Shown here in pieces: positions 5,406 through 12,380 of a DNA stretch of 64,000 bases. The notes under the pieces are model-generated. The model ran no database searches and was not told the origin of the DNA. It saw only the letters and a list, made by a program, of their open reading frames with translations. Origin of the DNA: Eubacteriales bacterium (lineage in GTDB: Bacteria; Bacillota; Clostridia; Oscillospirales; CAG-272); NCBI GenBank assembly GCA_045632305.1, contig JAZQWL010000032.1, positions 39,393 to 103,392 on the forward strand, written 5' to 3'. Made by a program: the position numbers and the translations under genes. Positions within the stretch are counted from its first letter, which is position 1. Every line of letters starts with the position of its first letter.

Positions 5406-6338
5406 TTACTTCAAAAATCCGTTTATAATTTCCTCTTCTGCCTGCTTTTCATCAAGACCGAGAGTCATAAGCTTAATAAGCTGCTCGCCTGCAATCTTAC
5501 CGATCGCCGCCTCGTGAATAAGGGACGCGTCGATGTGATTAGCGGTGATTTCGGGAACCGCCTGAACAGAAGCGTTATCCATAATGATAGCATCGCATTC
5601 CGTGTGTCCCGAGCAAGCGTTGTTACCTCGGATATTAGAGAGGAAGAGCTGCTTTGAGTTGTCTTTTGCAACCGAACGGGAAACCACATGCGCGCCGCAA
5701 TTCTCACCGTCAAGATCAAGAACAAACTCGGTTCTTGCGTACTGATTGCCGTGTGTCATGATCTTTTCGTGAACAACGAGAGTAGAATTCTTTGCAAGCT
5801 TTGCCTCAGTCTTTCTATCCGTGGAATCAACACCCTTGATCTGTGTTGTTTCCATTTCCATGTAAGCACCTTCGTCGAGAACTACAACAGAAGTGGGGTT
5901 CATAAGATTCTTTCCGTTTCCATCACCCTCGCCGTAATGCTTTTCAACGTATTTTACCTTTGCATTCTTGCCAACGTAAAAGCTGTGAATACCGCTATGC
6001 TCACTGTCCTGAACGCCACAGTTGTGAATACCGCAGCCTGCGATAATAAGGACGTCAGCACCTTCTTCGATGTGGAAATCGTTATATACGAGCTCGCGAA
6101 TACCTGTTTCTGCCAAGATTACAGGAATGTGCACGCTCTCTTTTTTAGCGCCTGCCTTGATATAAATATCAATACCGGGCTTGTCTGTTTTCTTTTCAAT
6201 AATGATGTTCTCAGAAGAATTTTTACCGAACATTTCGCCATCAACTCGGAGTGAATAAGCACCCTCAGGAATCTCGTGGAGATCGGCAACCTGTCTGAGC
6301 ATCTCAAGTTTTATTTTATCAAGCTGTTTTTCTGCCAT
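5406..6338 (-). CDS. SufB/SufD-family Fe-S cluster assembly protein (short, about 310 aa)
   Basis: The C-terminal signature HEAAIGKIAGEQLIKLMTLGLDEKQAEEEIINGF is typical of SufB/SufD. The start was moved to the ATG at 6338 (MAEKQ), which is preceded by GAGGAAAA. Confidence 0.75.
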   Translation of the reverse strand: MAEKQLDKIKLEMLRQVADLHEIPEGAYSLRVDGEMFGKNSSENIIIEKKTDKPGIDIYIKAGAKKESVHIPVILAETGIRELVYNDFHIEEGADVLIIAGCGIHNCGVQDSEHSGIHSFYVGKNAKVKYVEKHYGEGDGNGKNLMNPTSVVVLDEGAYMEMETTQIKGVDSTDRKTEAKLAKNSTLVVHEKIMTHGNQYARTEFVLDLDGENCGAHVVSRSVAKDNSKQLFLSNIRGNNACSGHTECDAIIMDNASVQAVPEITANHIDASLIHEAAIGKIAGEQLIKLMTLGLDEKQAEEEIINGFLK

Positions 6339-6355
6339 TATATTTTCCTCAAAAA

Positions 6356-7081
6356 TCAATTTTCCTGTGTAAATCTGCAACCTGTCTGCGCTCTGAAAAG
6401 CTCGGGATAGATTTCATTCTTGTCACCGTAAGCCGCAACCTTTCCGTTTGCAATAACTACGATCTTATCGGCAATATCAAGAATTCTTTCCTGATGAGAG
6501 ATGATGAGAATGTTTCCCTTTGTCTTTTCGTGCATCTTCTCAAAAACCTGAATAAGGTTATTGAAGCTCCAAAGGTCAATTCCCGCCTCGGGCTCATCAA
6601 ACACGGAGAACTTTGTTCCACGCGCATTTATCATAGCAATTTCAATTCTCTTCAGCTCTCCGCCGGAGAGAGATCCGTTTACTTCTCTGTTGATATATTC
6701 CTTTGCGCAAAGTCCAACCTCGGAGAGATAAGAACATGCCTCACCAATAGAAATCTTCTTACCCGCCGCCAAAGAAATAAGATCCTTAACGCTGATGCCC
6801 TTAAACTTTACGGGCTGCTGAAACGCGTAGCTGATACCCGCTCTTGAACGTTCTGTAATATTCATATTTGTAATGTCGACACCGTCAAGTAAAATCTGTC
6901 CTTCATCGGGAGTGATTATACCCGCAATGAGCTTCGCAAGAGTGGATTTACCCGAGCCGTTGGGGCCTGTTATAGCCACAAATCGCTCGTTTATAGTGAG
7001 ATTTATATTATCAAGTATTTTAGTTGTCTTGCCGCTTACCTCGTCAGTAACCGAGTACGACAAATTCTTAATTTCAAGCAT
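6356..7081 (-). CDS. sufC: SufC-like ABC ATPase
   Basis: Walker A GPNGSGKST, signature LSGGELKR, Walker B FSVFDEPEAGID and the H-loop. It is immediately upstream of the SufB/D-like gene. Confidence 0.8.
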   Translation of the reverse strand: MLEIKNLSYSVTDEVSGKTTKILDNINLTINERFVAITGPNGSGKSTLAKLIAGIITPDEGQILLDGVDITNMNITERSRAGISYAFQQPVKFKGISVKDLISLAAGKKISIGEACSYLSEVGLCAKEYINREVNGSLSGGELKRIEIAMINARGTKFSVFDEPEAGIDLWSFNNLIQVFEKMHEKTKGNILIISHQERILDIADKIVVIANGKVAAYGDKNEIYPELFRAQTGCRFTQEN

Positions 7082-7250: not shown

Positions 7251-8156
7251 TCAATTTTCAAGATATCTTATAGCAGCCAAAGCCGCGATCGCGCCGTCAC
7301 TGCAAGCTGTACTTATCTGACGAATGGACTTTGTTCTGCAGTCACCGGCAACGAAAAGCCCCGCAGTCTTTGTAAGACAAGCTTCATCGGAAACAATGTA
7401 TCCGCGATCATTAATTTCAGTTACGTCGCGAAAAATTTCATTTTCGGGAACCTGACCGATCGCAATAAACATGCCGTCAATATCAAGTCTTGTCTTCTCC
7501 CCTGTTTTTTCATTCTTAAGGATAATTGCTTCAAGCTCCTCACTACCGACAAGAGCTTCTACAACCGTTCCGTAAATTATCTCAACGTTATCCTTGCTCT
7601 TCAATATGTTTGCAAGCTTTTCTTCACCGGTGAGAAAATCAAGATTCTGAACGATATAAAGCTTTGCGCAGGTGTCAGAAAGCATAACCGCCTCAACGAG
7701 GGCAGAATTTCCTCCACCGATCACAGCAACTGTTTTACCTGCGTAAAATGCTCCGTCGCAAACCGCGCAAAAGGAAATGCCGTTACCGATAAATTCCTCC
7801 TCGTTATCAAGTCCGAGCTGACGGTGCTTAGAGCCCGTAGCAATGATTACGCTTTTCGCAATATAATCTCCGTCCTCGCAAGAAACAGAGAGAACACCGT
7901 TGTTATCAACAATACCTGTAACCTCAGTCATTTCAATATCCGCGCCAAGTGAAACTGCCTGTTCAACCAGCTTTTCCGCAAGCTCGTTTCCGCTTATCTG
8001 ATTGAAGCCGGGATAATTTTCAATTTTAGGCGAATAAGTTATCTGTCCGCCGAACGTTCCGCGCTCAAGGACTAAAACCTTTTTATCAGCGCGTCGCGCA
8101 TATATTGCGGCAGTAAGTCCCGCAGGGCCTGCGCCGACAATTATAATATCATACAT
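7251..8156 (-). CDS. trxB: Thioredoxin-reductase-family flavoprotein (TrxB-like) lacking the NADPH HRR motif
   Basis: FAD motif GAGPAG, redox-active CAVC (nt 7758-7769) and a second dinucleotide motif GGGNSA. The position equivalent to E. coli HRRDGFR reads VQNLDFL (nt 7623-7655). Confidence 0.85.
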   Translation of the reverse strand: MYDIIIVGAGPAGLTAAIYARRADKKVLVLERGTFGGQITYSPKIENYPGFNQISGNELAEKLVEQAVSLGADIEMTEVTGIVDNNGVLSVSCEDGDYIAKSVIIATGSKHRQLGLDNEEEFIGNGISFCAVCDGAFYAGKTVAVIGGGNSALVEAVMLSDTCAKLYIVQNLDFLTGEEKLANILKSKDNVEIIYGTVVEALVGSEELEAIILKNEKTGEKTRLDIDGMFIAIGQVPENEIFRDVTEINDRGYIVSDEACLTKTAGLFVAGDCRTKSIRQISTACSDGAIAALAAIRYLEN

Positions 8157-8177: not shown

Positions 8178-8202
8178 AAACCGCCGCATAAGCGGCGGTT
8201 TT
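8178..8202 (-). terminator. Hairpin between nrdD and trxB (weak terminator or attenuator)
   Basis: Stem AACCGCCGC/GCGGCGGTT with a 4-nt loop. In the minus sense it is followed only by TTTGATT, so termination is probably partial. Confidence 0.4.
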
Positions 8203-8212
8203 ACTTGGTTTA

Positions 8213-10621
8213 TTATTCTTTTACAGACTCAATGTACTTTTTGATGTTGGAAAGGTTTACCGCCTTTGCAACCTCAACTCCATTTTCAGCCACAACAAGT
8301 GTGGGCGCCTGCTTGATTCCGTATTTCTGAACGAGATCAACGTGCTCATCAGCATATACCTTAACGAAAGGAATACCCGCCTTTTCAAGGAACACGGCAG
8401 CCATCTTACAGTTGGGACATGTCTTTGTAGCAAACAGCATGATCTCTGTTCCTGCAGGTTCACATGCGCATTCGTCTACCTCGGGAACTGAAAGCGCAAT
8501 AGTTCTTACACCGTCAGAGCCGATATTGATCTCGGGATGAAGCTCAGTTGAACGCTCGATATTATACGTGCGTCTGTCCTTAAATTCCTGGCTCTTACCG
8601 TCATTCCACGCCTGAACGGGACGATAATAACCTGTAATACGGCTATAAACCTCGGTCTTTTTGCCACATTTAGGACAACTATACTCTTCACCTGCAATAT
8701 AACCGTGATCCGTACATACGCTGTATGTAGGAGACATTGTGTAGTAAGGAAGCTTGTAATTTTCCGCGATCTTGCGAACAAGGTTAGCAGCTGCCTGCCA
8801 TGAAGGAAGCTTTTCACCGAGGAACGCGTGGAAGACTGTACCCGATGTGTAAAGCGTCTGAAGCTCGTCCTGAATATCAAGAGCCGCGAAAATATCCTCT
8901 GTGAAGCTTACAGGCAAGTGAGAGGAGTTTGTATAATAAGGCGCGTTGGACTTTTCGGAAGCAGTGATAATATCGGGATACTTCTTTAAGTCATGCTTAG
9001 CGAAACGGAAGGATGTGGATTCTGCGGGAGTCGCCTCAAGGTTATAAAGGTCGCCGTACATTTCCTGATAGGCGGAGAGACGGTCTCTCATGTGATTGAG
9101 AACTTCCTTAGCAAATTCCTGTGTTTCCTTGTGTGTAAGGTCTGCGCGGAGCCACTTAGCGTTAAGGCCAACCTCGTTCATACCAACAAGACCGATAGTT
9201 GAGAAGTGGTTGTTGAACGTACCGAGATATCTCTTTGTATAAGGATAAAGACCGCTGTCAAGGAGCTTTGTAATAACCGTTCTCTTTGTCTTAAGCGAAC
9301 GAGCCGCAATGTCCATCAACTTATCAAGACGCTTATAGAAATCTTCGGGAGTTTCTGCAAGATAAGCAATTCTGGGAAGGTTTATAGTTACAACGCCAAC
9401 GGAACCCGTAGATTCACCCGAGCCGAAGAAACCGCCGGACTTCTTACGAAGCTCACGAAGATCAAGACGGAGACGGCAGCACATGGAACGAACGTCGGAG
9501 GGCTCCATATCGGAGTTGATGTAGTTTGAGAAATAAGGAGTACCGTACTTTGCTGTCATTTCAAAGAGAAGCTTGTTGTTCTCTGTTTCAGACCAGTCAA
9601 AGTCACGTGTAATAGAATAAGTAGGAATAGGATACTGGAAGCCACGGCCATTGGCGTCACCCTCGATCATGATCTCGATAAACGCCTTGTTTACCATGTC
9701 CATCTCTGCCTTACAATCCTTGTACTTGAAATCCATTTCCTTGCCGCCAACGATACAGTTGAGCTCAGCGAGGTCATTAGGAACTGTCCAGTCAAGAGTA
9801 ATATTTGTAAAGGGAGACTGTGTTCCCCAACGGGAAGGCGTATTTACACCGTAAATGAAGGACTGGATACACTGCTTCACTTCCTTATATGTAAGGTTAT
9901 CTGCCTTTACGAAGGGAGCGAGATACGTGTCAAATGAGGAGAATGCCTGCGCACCCGCCCATTCGTTCTGCATGATACCGAGGAAGTTAACCATCTGGTT
10001 ACAGAGAGTTGAAAGGTGAGCTGCGGGAGCAGACGTGATCTTACCGGTAACGCCGCCAAGCCCCTCCTGGATAAGCTGCTTTAAAGACCAACCTGCACAG
10101 TAACCTGTGAGCATGGAAAGGTCATGGATATGAATATCGGTATTTCTGTGAGCGTTAGCAACCTCGTCATCATAAACCTCACTTAACCAATAGTTAGCGG
10201 TAACCGCGCCGGAGTTGGAAAGAATAAGACCTCCTACAGAATAGGTTACGGTAGAATTTTCCTTAACTCTCCAGTCAAGCGCCTTGAGATAACCGTCAAC
10301 GATCTGCTTGTAGTCAACAGCGGTCGCATTGTAATTTCTGAGCTTCTCTCTTTGGCGACGGTAAAGAATAAACGCCTTTGCAACGTCTGCGTAACCTGCC
10401 TGAATAAGCACGGATTCAACACTGTCCTGAATATCTTCTACCTCTATAAGATTGTCTTTTATCTTGGGCTCAAAATCAGCTGTTACCTTGAGTGCTAAAA
10501 GATCGATAATACTGTCGTTATATTGCTTGTTCTGTGAATCGAAGGCAAGCTTGATCGCGTTCGAGATCTTACCGATCTCAAAATCAATTACCTTGCCGTT
10601 TCTCTTTTTAACCTTGTACAT
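8213..10621 (-). CDS. nrdD: Anaerobic ribonucleoside-triphosphate reductase NrdD with a fused C-terminal thioredoxin-fold (CPNC) domain
   Basis: N-terminal ATP-cone (KVKKRNGKVIDF), finger-loop-like SMCCRLRL, Zn ribbon CPKCG and glycyl-radical motif SRITGYYRPV. An extra 130 aa or so ends in FATKTCPNCKMAAVFLEKAGIPF...APTLVV. The start was set to the ATG at 10621, preceded by GGAGAATAAA. Confidence 0.9.
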   Translation of the reverse strand: MYKVKKRNGKVIDFEIGKISNAIKLAFDSQNKQYNDSIIDLLALKVTADFEPKIKDNLIEVEDIQDSVESVLIQAGYADVAKAFILYRRQREKLRNYNATAVDYKQIVDGYLKALDWRVKENSTVTYSVGGLILSNSGAVTANYWLSEVYDDEVANAHRNTDIHIHDLSMLTGYCAGWSLKQLIQEGLGGVTGKITSAPAAHLSTLCNQMVNFLGIMQNEWAGAQAFSSFDTYLAPFVKADNLTYKEVKQCIQSFIYGVNTPSRWGTQSPFTNITLDWTVPNDLAELNCIVGGKEMDFKYKDCKAEMDMVNKAFIEIMIEGDANGRGFQYPIPTYSITRDFDWSETENNKLLFEMTAKYGTPYFSNYINSDMEPSDVRSMCCRLRLDLRELRKKSGGFFGSGESTGSVGVVTINLPRIAYLAETPEDFYKRLDKLMDIAARSLKTKRTVITKLLDSGLYPYTKRYLGTFNNHFSTIGLVGMNEVGLNAKWLRADLTHKETQEFAKEVLNHMRDRLSAYQEMYGDLYNLEATPAESTSFRFAKHDLKKYPDIITASEKSNAPYYTNSSHLPVSFTEDIFAALDIQDELQTLYTSGTVFHAFLGEKLPSWQAAANLVRKIAENYKLPYYTMSPTYSVCTDHGYIAGEEYSCPKCGKKTEVYSRITGYYRPVQAWNDGKSQEFKDRRTYNIERSTELHPEINIGSDGVRTIALSVPEVDECACEPAGTEIMLFATKTCPNCKMAAVFLEKAGIPFVKVYADEHVDLVQKYGIKQAPTLVVAENGVEVAKAVNLSNIKKYIESVKE

Positions 10622-10731
10622 TTTATTCTCCTTATTTTGTTTTTTTATAACATTTTTTCTCATAAGACAAATATAAGCATACGACATTTAAAAAATGCAG
10701 TATACTCATCCACCGCAAGTGCGGTAGAATA

Positions 10732-10760
10732 AGTATACTACATTTAGTATTTTTTGTCAA
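10732..10760 (-). promoter_or_regulatory. Sigma-A type promoter for nrdD
   Basis: Minus strand reads TTGACA (10755-10760), a 17-nt spacer, then TATACT (10732-10737). Confidence 0.55.
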
Positions 10761-10767
10761 GAACATT

Positions 10768-10815
10768 ATACAAGATATTGTGCCGAAATTTTAAAATCGG
10801 CACAATATATAGTTT
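10768..10815 (-). promoter_or_regulatory. Two tandem NrdR boxes
   Basis: ATACAAGATATTGTGC (10768-10783) and GCACAATATATAGTTT (10800-10815) each match the 16-bp NrdR palindrome acaCwAtATaTwGtgt with 3 or fewer mismatches. They are spaced 32 bp centre to centre. Confidence 0.6.
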
Positions 10816-11509
10816 AAATTCCTCTTATTTGTGCATTTTCGACATATTGCTTCAAAACGTTACAAAATGAGACCATTTTTTCCTTCGTAACGACGTATAC
10901 GCCATCGCCCACGAGATTTCCCGAATCAACGAACGCCTGCAAATAAAATTTTTCCTCACCCGCAAGCCACTGACCGATCCGTTCAAAATCCTCCTCTGTA
11001 TGATAGGGAGAAACCACTGTCGTCCTGAACTCAAAATCGACCGCATTTTGCATAAGCATCTCTGCTGACCGCTTAACGGCTCCAAGATCAAAGGAATCAT
11101 CAACGCCTGCGGTCTCAGGATACTTCTCAAGGCAATTTTTGATATCCATTGCGACGTAATCTATCATTTTATTATTAATGAGATACTCAAGCATTTCGGG
11201 ATTCGTACCGTTGGTGTCCAATTTTACTTTGTAGCCGAGCGCCTTTATTTTGGAAATAAATTCGGGCAGATCCGTCATGAGCGTCGGCTCTCCGCCCGTA
11301 ATCACTACCCCGTCAAGAATACCAACACGCTTATTTAAAAATGAAAGGATCTCATCTTCATCAATAAAACAGTTCTTCTCTACCTTGTTTACAAGAGGCG
11401 CATTATGACAAAACGGACAGCGGAAATTACACCCGACAGTAAATATTGTAGCGGCAACCTTGCTGGGATAATCAAGCAAGGTGAGCTTTTGAATTCCACC
11501 AATCAACAT
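10814..11509 (-). CDS. nrdG: Anaerobic RNR activating enzyme (radical SAM)
   Basis: CNFRCPFCHN cluster motif, GGEPTL, 231 aa, located directly upstream of nrdD. Confidence 0.85.
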   Translation of the reverse strand: MLIGGIQKLTLLDYPSKVAATIFTVGCNFRCPFCHNAPLVNKVEKNCFIDEDEILSFLNKRVGILDGVVITGGEPTLMTDLPEFISKIKALGYKVKLDTNGTNPEMLEYLINNKMIDYVAMDIKNCLEKYPETAGVDDSFDLGAVKRSAEMLMQNAVDFEFRTTVVSPYHTEEDFERIGQWLAGEEKFYLQAFVDSGNLVGDGVYVVTKEKMVSFCNVLKQYVENAQIRGI

Positions 11510-11523
11510 ATATTGACTCTCTC

Positions 11524-12117
11524 TTAAACGTAATTTCTCTGAATCGCAACGACTTTACCGATAATCATAACCTCATCGCTGATGATCGGCTTCATTGTAT
11601 TATTCTCGGGCTGAAGTCTGTAATGACCGTTTTCTCTGTAAAATCTCTTCACTGTCGCTTCATCGTCGATCATAGCCACAACAATTTCACCGTTTTCTGC
11701 ATAACAGGTCTGCTCTGCGATTATAATATCACCGTCGAGTATTCCCGCTAAGATCATACTGTCACCGCGAACGCGGAGCGCAAAAAGATTATCGCTGCCG
11801 TTTCCGATATAACCAACGTAGCCCTCAAAATTTTCTGCTGCAAGAATGGGTGTTCCCGCAGTAACCACGCCAAGAAGAGGAATTGCGGAAACGTTTGGCT
11901 TGTCGTCGCCGTTGAGCTTTACCGCGCGGCTCTTTCCGTCCTCCTTGGAAATATAACCAAACATATCAAGTCGGTTCAAGTACATGTGAACAGTTGACGT
12001 ACTCTTATATCCGAGATCTCGGCATATATCACGAACGCTGGGAGCATATCCGTTTTCCTTTACGGACTTGACAATATAATCGTATACCTTTTGCTCCTTC
12101 GGCTTTAGCTTTTCCAT
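11524..12117 (-). CDS. lexA: LexA repressor
   Basis: Winged-HTH N-terminus (YAPSVRDICRDLGYKSTSTVHMYLNRL), an Ala-Gly cleavage site (VTAG), and catalytic Ser (GDSM) and Lys (VKR). The start was moved to MEKLK at 12117. Confidence 0.9.
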   Translation of the reverse strand: MEKLKPKEQKVYDYIVKSVKENGYAPSVRDICRDLGYKSTSTVHMYLNRLDMFGYISKEDGKSRAVKLNGDDKPNVSAIPLLGVVTAGTPILAAENFEGYVGYIGNGSDNLFALRVRGDSMILAGILDGDIIIAEQTCYAENGEIVVAMIDDEATVKRFYRENGHYRLQPENNTMKPIISDEVMIIGKVVAIQRNYV

Positions 12118-12380
12118 ATATCCTCCAAAACTAATCAAATTAATATTCAAGGTCTATATTTTATCATATATTTGTAACGCAAATTGTGATAATTTTCGAC
12201 TAAACTGTAAAATTATGATACATTTGTTTGTCATTGTCGACACTTTTTGTAAAAAATTTTAAACATTATCAAATTACCTATTGCAAAAATCTCAAAATTA
12301 TTGTAAAATATATAATGGGTAAATAAGGAAATATTTACCGTGAAAAGTATTAAATAATAAAAATATAAAGGAGTAACAGT

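Follow-up and report, generated by a model that had tools for sequence, protein, structure and literature searches.

The NrdD3 enzyme of Methanosarcina barkeri, a class III RNR, reportedly works with an NrdH-like redoxin and a ferredoxin:disulfide reductase, according to work of Wei et al. from 2015. As is proposed for the locus described here, it has its own small redoxin and, from a nearby gene, its own non-NADPH disulfide reductase. It differs from our locus in that the redoxin is separate and the reductase belongs to the Fe-S enzymes and not to the flavoproteins. Thiol-dependent NrdD2 is defined in PMC4493059 and PMC9669993 by a third active-site Cys beside the thiyl Cys, by an active-site Glu, the proton source that marks the formate-independent type of NrdD, and by NTP reduction with a thioredoxin system in the absence of formate. 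The NrdD2 enzymes of N. bacilliformis and T. maritima (4COI/4U3E; Wei 2014, as relayed in PMC4493059, PMC4390871 and PMC9669993) share with our locus the glycyl radical and the NrdG activase, and are alike also in the extra Cys of the finger loop, the active-site Glu, the bottom-face Cys and thioredoxin as the proposed reductant. In those two organisms the thioredoxin is described there as separate and general, whereas here a redoxin lies in the polypeptide itself and a reductase gene is adjacent.

Redoxins dedicated to RNRs are also known from the other classes. The NrdH/TrxR system of class Ib RNR is similar to our locus, as NrdH, whose gene accompanies those of the RNR, is a small redoxin of the Grx fold that receives its electrons from TrxR (PMC6187632); however, NrdH is free-standing and serves NrdEF, and the domain described below has CPNC and not the NrdH motif. 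A covalent joining of a CxxC redoxin to an RNR component, as in our case, was described for the Grx::ATP-cone::NrdB protein of Facklamia ignava, the only organism for which a fused redoxin was demonstrated to act as RNR reductant (PMC6187632). The F. ignava fusion is of class I, N-terminal, on the radical-generating subunit and with a GSH-linked Grx, while ours is of class III, C-terminal, on the catalytic subunit, with a Trx-like CPNC domain and a TrxR-like partner gene. One "Glutaredoxin:NrdD" was listed in 2018, from Lachnospiraceae bacterium TWA4 (WP_082039398.1, subclass NrdDd; PMC6187632, Table S1), as an entry without stated domain order. A C-terminal CPNC tail is present in all 120 Lachnospiraceae homologues retrieved, so the TWA4 protein very probably has the architecture found here. 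In the literature on the Grx:NrdD fusion we found no biochemical study.

The window, that is, the whole stretch of 64,000 nucleotides which was analysed, carries such a fusion on its minus strand. The gene and the features of its catalytic part are:

8213..10621, minus strand: nrdD::trx fusion gene, 802 aa, consisting of ATP-cone, class III RNR core, linker and thioredoxin-fold domain
10346..10615, minus strand: ATP-cone (aa 3-92), the allosteric on/off domain (PF03477, E 8.8e-20; pLDDT 76-87 in the full-length model)
10088..10105, minus strand: GYCAGW with Cys175, the conserved "bottom-face" active-site Cys, aligning with T. maritima NrdD Cys125 and invariant in 53 homologues
9470..9487, minus strand: finger loop S-M380-C381-C382-R-L, corresponding in the alignment to SCCR of T. 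maritima and M-G-C416-R of P. copri (PMC11226230)
9020..9046, minus strand: YNLEATPAE with Glu529, aligning with T. maritima E495, replaced by Leu in the formate-type P. copri enzyme and conserved in related loci
8666..8716, minus strand: putative Zn-ribbon-like C636-x2-H639 ... C649-x2-C652 of the glycyl-radical domain, in invariant columns matching the CxxC region of NrdDs with solved structures
8615..8644, minus strand: glycyl-radical motif SRITG664YYRPV, aligned with solved NrdDs

The mechanical ORF spans 8213..10687 on the minus strand (824 aa), and the true start is the ATG at 10621, with AAGGAG 7 nt upstream. The resulting 802-aa product is identical to that on an NCBI contig. A first-pass annotation of this DNA had proposed that one ORF runs through the NrdD core and an extension beyond the usual end of class III RNRs. 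Both points were confirmed: the frame is open from SRITGYYRPV (aa 660-669; nt 8615-8644) to the stop codon at 8213-8215, and solved NrdDs finish, by alignment, 5-7 residues past the position of residue 686 of the 802-aa protein, leaving 114-116 extra residues in the fusion protein. The usual NrdD end corresponds to RRTYNI (aa 683-688). The linker, put at about 55 aa in that annotation, has this length if counted from the Gly motif, but is about 36 aa long if counted from RRTYNI.

The core scored 1134.7 bits with NF006126 (cut-off 548) and 520.4 bits with TIGR02487 (cut-off 326.35), and Pfam NRDD (PF13597) matched aa 143-708 of the 824-aa ORF with E 1.9e-190. By these curated models, the Gly motif, the thiyl Cys and the presence of nrdG, it is identified as the catalytic subunit of a class III RNR, although its sequence relation to TmNrdD is distant (phmmer E 1e-39). 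By alignment, Cys382 would be the thiyl-radical Cys and Cys381 the extra Cys corresponding to the NrdD2 disulfide partner, next to Met380; the pair C381-C382 aligns with C329-C330 of T. maritima, where P. copri has G-C. The motif SMCCRL was found in all related loci covering the region and in ten named or closest Lachnospiraceae proteins. Judged by these residues (C381, Glu529 and Cys175), the core bears the signature of a thiol-dependent NrdD2. The earlier suggestion that the SMCCRLRL loop is compatible with the formate-independent subtype is supported by C381-C382 and further strengthened by E529, the equivalent of Tm E495, but the Met of formate chemistry is kept. This Met is missing from the N. 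bacilliformis and T. maritima enzymes (SCCR instead of MCCR). It is retained in 83% of CC-type NrdDs; strictly thioredoxin-only clades have the Glu and no finger-loop Met, and NrdD3, with QCCR/A, has neither Glu nor Met (PMC9669993). With S-M380-C-C-R our enzyme falls outside the strictly thioredoxin-only clades, and since M-C-C-R retains the Met of formate chemistry (PMC9669993), formate could still be used. It belongs to the larger "Met + CC" group, in which either reductant could be usable in principle.

The features beyond the core are:

8450..8557, minus strand: flexible linker, aa 689-724, about 36 aa (pLDDT 50-60 and without secondary structure in AF2)
8459-8473, minus strand: Cys pair of the linker, E-C718-A-C720-E
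8216..8449, minus strand: thioredoxin-fold domain, aa 725-802, about 77 aa (Pfam, AF2, Foldseek)
8408-8419, minus strand: redox motif C735-P-N-C738
8291-8311, minus strand: presumed cis-Pro773 in QAPTLVV, the cis conformation being presumed

The tail had been described as a thioredoxin/glutaredoxin-like domain with CPNC at 8408-8419, and this description, position included, proved correct. Pfam Thioredoxin (PF00085) gave 28.2 bits with the full protein and 32.1 with the tail alone (cut-off 23.5), and Pfam Glutaredoxin (PF00462) gave 26.4 bits with the full protein, at aa 749-815 of the 824-aa ORF, and 29.5 with the tail alone (cut-off 22.9). The AF2 model of the tail has the topology β1-α1-β2-α2-β3-β4-α3 at pLDDT 88-94 (elements E58-64, H69-81, E86-89, H94-100, E107-112, E115-121 and H123-134). 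Foldseek with this model returned 353 PDB matches at E<1e-3, many with a probability of 1.0, and the top ones were all thioredoxins. On models and sequence together, with the CxxC at the start of α1 and a Pro ahead of β3, the tail is classed as a domain of the thioredoxin-fold superfamily. The full-length AF2 model, made from an MSA of sequences 79-98% identical, had a mean pLDDT of 54.6 and is confident for the ATP-cone and the Trx domain only. Narrower assignments failed. With TIGR01068 for canonical TrxA the tail reached 29-33 bits against a cut-off of 96.8, with TIGR02194 for NrdH 22.4-25.2 bits against 85.75, and the curated cut-off for YruB was missed as well, so the specificity for a partner cannot be read from family membership. 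The motif is TCPNC rather than WCGPC, and four strands and three helices are predicted, as compared with the five-stranded TrxA with its extra N-terminal β-α. In 78 diverse tails CPxC was invariant in its two Cys and its Pro, and QAPTLVV in its Ala-Pro, even though the tails of homologues share only 40-75% identity, which indicates selection on the dithiol redox site and puts the feature well outside what chance would produce. The linker varied among homologues in length and sequence, extending 10-58 aa past the core end, with 47-97 aa between the Gly motif and CPNC; a Cys pair was present in 75 of 195 unique linkers.

Two neighbouring genes lie on the same strand:

10814..11509, minus strand: nrdG, radical-SAM activase of class III RNR, 231 aa (TIGR02495 NrdG2, 217 bits, cut-off 131; Pfam Radical_SAM)
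7251..8156, minus strand: gene of a low-Mr thioredoxin-reductase-like flavoprotein (trxB-like), 301 aa, beginning 56 nt past the nrdD stop
7758-7769, minus strand: its redox motif C130-A-V-C133
7701-7718, minus strand: its GGGNSA
7623-7652, minus strand: its VQNLDFLTGE, in place of HRRxxxR

The spacer between nrdD and the trxB-like gene is one nucleotide shorter than the 57 nt given previously. The claim of an adjoining trxB-like gene holds for the general type of protein: CAVC and GGGNSA are present, the TIGR01292 score (331.9 bits) is slightly below the cut-off of 343.45, the best PDB match is 7JYP (E 9e-72), which shares the VQNLxxLT motif, and nearly all of the 55 best PDB matches are thioredoxin reductases, the exceptions being a few lower-ranking AhpF and ferredoxin-NADP reductases. 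As regards the cofactor it is less secure, since in the PDB alignment the NADPH motif HRRxxxR is absent and VQNLDFLTGE stands in its place. HRRxxxR binds the 2'-phosphate of NADPH and serves as the criterion in PMC10880999 and PMC5627308, and the T. maritima enzyme, TmTR, prefers NADH (PMC5627308). Without this motif the electron donor is uncertain, and the name "TrxB" in the NADPH sense is not established. The product was also compared with the characterised FFTRs (6GNA-6GND), for which the criteria are closest similarity to these proteins and the loss of both NAD(P)H motifs. An FFTR identity was rejected, since GGGNSA is kept and the 131 bits of 6GNA fall short of 7JYP (245) and of the L. 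lactis TrxR (236). It was likewise rejected for the "GDANTA" type of partner reductase at one related locus (L045), where canonical TrxRs were the best PDB matches.

The fusion was followed in other genomes by a scan for the tail domain with a 6-sequence alignment. The thioredoxin domain was matched in more than 580 species-representative genomes, and it directly followed an NrdD core in 80/80 species-level loci examined. The 240 full-length homologues listed likewise retain the fusion; among them are proteins from cultured isolates and from contigs of up to 4.1 Mb. Cultured Lachnospiraceae carrying it include Faecalicatena contorta and Extibacter muris, and the fusion has also spread into Bacilli and Lentisphaerae. 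Upstream, 51 of the 80 related loci had an nrdG in the same orientation. Downstream, a TrxR-like gene followed immediately in 62 of 80 species (78%), while 14 of the 80 had no TrxR gene within 5 kb of the fused nrdD. These downstream reductases span at least three NAD(P)H-motif classes, so that what has been conserved is the presence of some flavin disulfide reductase beside the fused nrdD. The rarity implied in the first-pass annotation is contradicted by these counts: by sequence comparison the protein is a redoxin-RNR fusion that recurs in independent genomes, is common in gut Clostridia and is found in hundreds of gut species, and one NrdD-redoxin fusion had already been listed in 2018 (PMC6187632, Table S1). 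The public annotation "ribonucleoside triphosphate reductase" conceals the extra redoxin domain. When the Trx domain was searched against representatives of 50%-identity clusters, 761 matches were obtained, mostly short fragments; this set is unsuitable for counting fusions, because unfused or other proteins stand there for the clusters that contain the full-length fused NrdDs. Two apparent stand-alone redoxin genes beside nrdD (P0005 at L001, P0115 at L002) are in fact fused genes whose core is interrupted by a stop or deletion, and therefore do not speak for a split ancestor.

What the data show directly is the domain architecture and fold of the protein, its catalytic residues, and the conservation of both fusion and gene order. 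The reading that we consider reasonably likely is that of a thiol-dependent, NrdD2-type class III RNR with a dedicated redoxin fused at its C-terminus, which would re-reduce the enzyme and be recharged by the neighbouring flavoprotein. NrdG would install the glycyl radical on G664. Each NTP reduction would then leave a disulfide between Cys381 and Cys175, the proton coming from Glu529, and the tethered CPNC domain could swing on the disordered linker of about 36 aa to re-reduce this disulfide, be it within the same subunit or across the NrdD dimer. The oxidised CPNC would in turn receive electrons from the CAVC/FAD flavoprotein, whose gene begins 56 nt downstream. As the reductase does not have the motif for the 2'-phosphate of NADPH, NADH or possibly a low-potential carrier would be a likelier donor than NADPH. 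We infer this chain from flavoprotein to tethered CPNC to NrdD disulfide, its electron-transfer steps, the identity of the disulfide and the donor included; the "self-contained chain" proposed at first derives from the fusion and from synteny in 62 of 80 species. A precedent for a redoxin-driven class III RNR is given by the NrdD of N. bacilliformis, which turns over with thioredoxin (Wei 2014, as relayed in PMC4390871 and PMC9669993), and a precedent for a fused redoxin by the Grx on NrdB, a working RNR reductant (PMC6187632). Against this reading count the retained Met380, with which the residues for formate-dependent chemistry are present too, the 14 of 80 species without a nearby TrxR gene, and the statement that redoxins do not fit into the active sites of class I and II enzymes (PMC4390871), which bears on access to the buried class III active site.

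The retained Met380 (PMC9669993) could also be explained if formate were the reductant, acting via Met380 and Cys175, and the tethered redoxin were a maintenance or activation factor rather than the turnover reductant. The redoxin would then keep the Zn-ribbon or other Cys of the glycyl-radical domain reduced, for example after transient O2 in the gut, and so let NrdG install the radical. The domain is joined directly behind the glycyl-radical/Zn-ribbon domain, and thioredoxin activates the formate-dependent class III RNR of E. coli (Padovani 2001, as cited in a passage of PMC4390871). However, Cys381 and Glu529 take no part in formate chemistry and yet occur throughout the fused clade without exception, and occasional repair does not obviously need a covalent redoxin at 1:1 and a dedicated reductase gene. 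We regard this explanation as unlikely.

The missing reductase gene in some species would also fit a tail that is a general thioredoxin for other targets or oxidative stress, fused for co-expression, with the downstream TrxR as a housekeeping reductase. General thioredoxins are indeed the closest structural matches, and stand-alone relatives of 71 aa occur in phage replication modules. Nevertheless, a redoxin tethered 1:1 to a low-abundance enzyme would be a poor general reductant, all 80 of 80 species-level matches to this redoxin subfamily were fused to NrdD, and several other Trx systems are usual in Clostridia (PMC10880999), which makes a general role quite improbable. Recharging by a low-molecular-weight thiol instead of the neighbouring flavoprotein, as for a glutaredoxin- or NrdH-like tail, is very improbable. 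Such a tail would fit the Pfam Glutaredoxin score above cut-off, the weak similarity to NrdH and YruB and the minimal topology of four strands and three helices, which is of the Grx/NrdH type; but a TrxR-like gene adjoins in 78% of species, NrdH itself is TrxR-reduced (PMC6187632), and on inspection by eye no Grx signature for GSH binding was recognised. Finally, an assembly, frameshift or annotation artefact joining nrdD to a separate nrdH-like gene is refuted for practical purposes: three related MAG loci do have breaks inside nrdD (a stop in L001, a deletion/frameshift in L002, a 340-aa segment in L003), but these lie within the NrdD core and never at the core/tail junction, with the tail still in frame with the Gly-radical motif, and an unbroken ORF is seen in the window, in 78 of 81 independently assembled loci and in the 240 full-length homologues listed.

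Apart from the window itself, the dedicated-redoxin reading has a wider and decidedly tentative form. The fused clade might be nature's own indication that class III RNRs of the "Met + Cys-Cys + Glu" type, which are the most numerous, depend on protein thiols in vivo, with the tethered redoxin often fed by a non-NADPH TrxR variant. In about 40% of members a shuttle Cys pair like that of class I and II ([E/A]CxCE, 8-10 residues before the Trx domain) might relay electrons into the buried active site; a shuttle Cys element is stated to be absent from class III RNRs (PMC4390871). The reductant of the common MCCR-type anaerobic RNRs has so far been inferred from few residues, and a natural fusion would name the physiological redoxin and, by synteny, its reductase. 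The three genes nrdG, nrdD::trx and trxB-like form a fully defined system for thiol- versus formate-dependent chemistry. It also bears on how a redoxin gains access to a glycyl-radical active site and on whether NADH, NADPH or ferredoxin supplies the electrons for DNA precursors in gut Clostridia, which are abundant. With the cultured hosts F. contorta and E. muris, experiments are practical.

Candidate control elements flank the fused gene:

10732..10815, minus strand: nrdG-nrdD intergenic control region with a promoter and two NrdR-box-like palindromes
8178..8201: G+C-rich hairpin of 10 bp within the 56 nt between nrdD and the trxB-like gene, without U-tract on the coding (minus) strand

A promoter scan found a sigma-70-like promoter, TTGACA-17-TATACT, at 10760..10732, and the NrdR-box-like palindromes are located at 10768-10783 and 10800-10815, 32 bp apart. 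With up to 3 mismatches, the pattern ACACWATATATWGTGT had 5 matches in the window, compared with 0.62 expected, and two of them are those in the nrdG-nrdD gap. The pattern follows the NrdR consensus, and the candidate boxes are a lead only. As the coding strand has no U-tract, the spacer hairpin is probably an attenuating or stabilising stem and not a full terminator.

The class III ribonucleotide reductase gene of the window, nrdD::trx, consists of the parts listed here, residue numbers of its product being counted from the ATG at 10621.

Features of nrdD::trx and of its product NrdD::Trx
8213..10687, minus strand: mechanical open reading frame, 824 codons
residues 3-92, minus strand: ATP-cone
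minus strand: class III reductase core (PF13597, E 1.9e-190; NF006126, 1134.7 bits against a cut-off of 548)
8615-8644, minus strand: glycyl-radical motif SRITG664YYRPV
minus strand: short C-terminal helix usual for NrdD, ending at RRTYNI688
8459-8473, minus strand: linker cysteine pair E-C718-A-C720-E
8408-8419, minus strand: CPNC motif

The ATG at 10621, with AAGGAG upstream, was chosen as the start and gives an 802-aa product; an identical 802-aa protein was found by database look-up on an NCBI contig, and the close homologues are all about 800 aa long. Beyond RRTYNI688 the frame continues for another 114 residues without a stop codon. Since the NrdDs of solved structure from P. copri (8P23) and T. 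maritima (4COI/4U3E) stop 5-7 residues past the position aligned to residue 686, the extension is real, and unusual compared with the characterised enzymes. The first-pass annotation had placed CPNC at these same coordinates, in a tail separated from the glycyl-radical motif by no in-frame stop, and both points agree with the reading frame; the trxB-like gene that it placed downstream does adjoin nrdD, across a spacer of 56 nt and not 57.

The tail was also said to be a thioredoxin fold, and this holds. Two Pfam families match residues 727-793 above their cut-offs: Thioredoxin with 28.2 bits (23.5 needed) and Glutaredoxin with 26.4 bits (22.9 needed). AlphaFold2, given the last 135 residues and an alignment of 78 tails (40-75% identical), returned a β1-α1-β2-α2-β3-β4-α3 model with pLDDT 88-94, preceded by about 40 unstructured residues (pLDDT 50-60). 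Foldseek found 353 PDB matches to this model at E<1e-3, the top ones all bona fide thioredoxins (TM 0.57-0.76, normalised to target; 23-33% identity). The predicted domain is a minimal thioredoxin fold of four strands and three helices with Grx/NrdH topology. In the profile search it fell below the curated cut-offs for TrxA, NrdH and YruB, and it is therefore assigned, by sequence, to a redoxin subfamily of its own. In the aligned tails, C-P-x-C never varies at its two Cys and its Pro, nor does QAPTLVV at its Ala-Pro.

The catalytic core carries the signature of the thiol-dependent subtype NrdD2, for which a third Cys and a Glu are the published definition (PMC4493059). In phmmer alignments the finger loop S-M380-C381-C382-R corresponds to S-C329-C330-R of T. 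maritima and to M-G-C416-R of the formate-dependent P. copri enzyme (PMC11226230), Cys175 to T. maritima Cys125, and Glu529 (YNLEATPAE) to T. maritima Glu495, a column occupied by Leu in P. copri. Cys381 beside Cys382, together with Glu529, upholds the thiol-reduced subtype first suggested from the sequence and likens the predicted chemistry to that of the N. bacilliformis and T. maritima NrdD2 enzymes. Met380 is retained, and the equivalent Met supports formate chemistry in E. coli; this Met is kept in 83% of double-Cys NrdDs, whose reductant was left open by the authors (PMC9669993).

The most economical reading, which we somewhat favour, is a self-contained electron chain. The FAD/CAVC reductase encoded downstream would pass electrons to the tethered CPNC. 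By analogy with NrdD2, CPNC would reduce a C381-C175 disulfide in the active site, and the electrons would then reach the NTP with Glu529 as the proton source. With its 36 aa the linker can bridge over 100 Å, and reach should not be limiting, be it within one subunit or between the two of the dimer. In the main rival reading, which we hold less likely, the domain would serve in activation or repair, keeping the adjacent Cys/His Zn-ribbon reduced, with formate as the reductant. Thioredoxin acting likewise on the E. coli enzyme is a precedent (Padovani 2001, as relayed in PMC4390871), but the universal retention of Cys381 and Glu529 speaks against this reading. A dual role is possible and compatible with that retention.

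Cysteine is enriched in the linker, which is disordered and rich in Glu and Ala: it makes up 3.8% of the residues there, against 1.5% in the core. Among 195 distinct linkers, a sample biased towards close relatives, 75 had a vicinal Cys pair, typically [E/A]-C-x-C-E placed 8-10 residues ahead of β1, and 68 had no Cys; the pair is missing in many close relatives. The pair may act as an optional shuttle dithiol, comparable to the one at the C-terminus of class I/II reductases, or as a metal site, or it may mean nothing; reviews describe class III enzymes as being without such a C-terminal shuttle pair (PMC4390871).

The first-pass annotation had proposed a survey of how widespread the fusion is. 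When one genome of each GTDB species was scanned, the peptide TKTCPNC[KQ] matched at least 580 loci, and in 80 of the 80 kept the redoxin directly followed the NrdD core on the same strand. The fusion is common and not an artefact. Of 81 loci parsed from a set of 82, the glycyl-radical motif and CPNC lay in a single uninterrupted frame in 78; the other three were one locus with a variant Gly motif and two that are cut off at a contig edge but still show the NrdD tail. SMCCRL was present in every locus covering the region, as was YNLEATPAE save in one. The 120 top-ranking homologues of the whole protein all measured 796-950 aa, with 79-98% identity. A second search seeded with a Lachnospiraceae member added 120 proteins, each with the CPNC tail, including those of the cultured Faecalicatena contorta, Extibacter muris and Clostridium sp. 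AF15-17LB. Most hosts are uncultured Clostridia of gut and rumen (Oscillospiraceae, Ruminococcaceae, Acutalibacteraceae, Christensenellales, Lachnospiraceae), joined by Erysipelotrichaceae, further Bacilli and a small number of Lentisphaerae/Victivallales. Nearest to the window among the matches listed is L003, a MAG labelled Eubacteriales bacterium (core 98% identical). Three Victivallales/Lentisphaerae MAGs (L036, L041, L069) carry NrdD::Trx outside the Firmicutes. Because the core is 82% identical there, and 77-98% across Clostridia and Bacilli, recent horizontal spread of the fused gene is suggested.

A TrxR-like gene lies directly downstream in 62 of the 80 species loci (median gap between BLAST hits 37 nt) and 1.5-2.9 kb away in three; none was found within 5 kb in 14. 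When motifs were counted over 66 related loci (L003-L082) and the window, these reductases fell into at least three classes at the NADPH 2'-phosphate binding site: VQNLxxLTGE (38, the window's included), canonical IHRRxxFRGE (15), and others such as GDANTA...TLFDKLFGD (14). The electron donor therefore probably differs between lineages. NADPH-type enzymes are defined by GxGxxA and HRRxxxR, and HRR is reported to be missing from NADH-preferring or NAD(P)H-independent enzymes (PMC10880999, PMC5627308). The window reductase retains CAVC and GGGNSA. Its donor is uncertain, since VQNLDFLTGE (7623-7652, minus strand; residues 169-178) replaces the NADPH-specific HRRxxxR, the VQNL motif being shared with its best PDB match, 7JYP, and since it is not notably close to the ferredoxin-dependent FFTRs (131 bits to 6GNA against 245 to 7JYP); NADH is our best guess.

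The minus-strand gene order is lexA, nrdG, nrdD::trx, trxB-like, sufC-like ATPase, SufBD-core protein, typA, with the following neighbours and control elements.

Neighbouring genes and candidate control elements
11524..12150, minus strand: lexA, ending 14 nt ahead of the nrdG start
10800-10815 and 10768-10783, nrdG-nrdD intergenic region: pair of NrdR-box-like 16-mers, 32 bp apart, overlapping a promoter-like site
8178-8201, nrdD-trxB spacer: perfect 10-bp G+C-rich hairpin AAACCGCCGC-ATAA-GCGGCGGTTT, without U-tract
6356..7081, minus strand: sufC-like ABC ATPase, directly after the trxB-like gene
5406..6380, minus strand: SufBD-core protein

The two 16-mers, candidate NrdR boxes, also form the two halves of an extended inverted repeat, ATATTGTGCCGA...TCGGCACAATAT. 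A strong sigma-70-like promoter lies between nrdG and nrdD. The arrangement suggests control by NrdR and a promoter of its own for nrdD::trx. The hairpin is T-rich on the non-coding strand only and so is not a classic terminator in the operon direction. Through the adjacent lexA, anaerobic dNTP supply may be linked to the SOS regulon. The order from lexA to the ABC ATPase recurs in the related locus L001. Fe-S assembly genes (5406-7081, minus strand) adjoin the radical-SAM/reductase cluster, and in L001 the TrxR-like gene is likewise followed by an ABC ATPase.

As a concept, the fused reductant has a counterpart in Facklamia ignava, whose Grx::NrdB was shown to be functional (PMC6187632). The RefSeq survey of that paper lists one 'Glutaredoxin:NrdD' from Lachnospiraceae bacterium TWA4, as NrdDd and without further comment; this protein very probably shares the architecture of the window's NrdD::Trx. 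No description of the C-terminal fusion as a clade, of its NrdD2 signature, of the linked reductase or of its spread was found in the literature searched, and public records label the proteins only 'ribonucleoside triphosphate reductase'. The fusion is real, well supported and a useful experimental handle, though in principle unsurprising.

Two seemingly free-standing redoxin genes beside nrdD in MAGs proved to be fused genes broken within the core, not between core and tail. In L001 (5400-6300) a stop replaces the Tyr preceding the CPxC of the Zn-ribbon, and in L002 (4700-5520) about 70 aa are deleted and the frame is shifted; L003 is also interrupted in the core, near residue 460. These copies are pseudogenes or else products of misassembly, in which gene callers report a spurious small 'thioredoxin' ORF. 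Nine of 12 matches on IMG/VR viral contigs were of the fused form. The other three were a free 71-aa redoxin of the same CPNC subfamily (L089:3998-4204, L090:1904-2119, L091:1855-2061) in a phage replication module with a DnaB-like helicase, a gp32-like protein and a DHH phosphoesterase, and no window-like nrdD was found within 4 kb of it. Four cluster representatives (P0257, P0268, P0324, P0351) join an N-terminal piece of a TrxR-like flavoprotein straight to the CPNC domain, through either chimeric assembly or a true rearrangement at the nrdD::trx-trxB junction. The fused protein P0274 (1041 aa) appears to carry an intein-like insertion directly past TPSRWG in the core. The 309-aa fragment P0241 has many tandem units of about 20 aa (ACDGTRILGTAKAEP) ahead of the CPNC domain, an extreme expansion of the linker.
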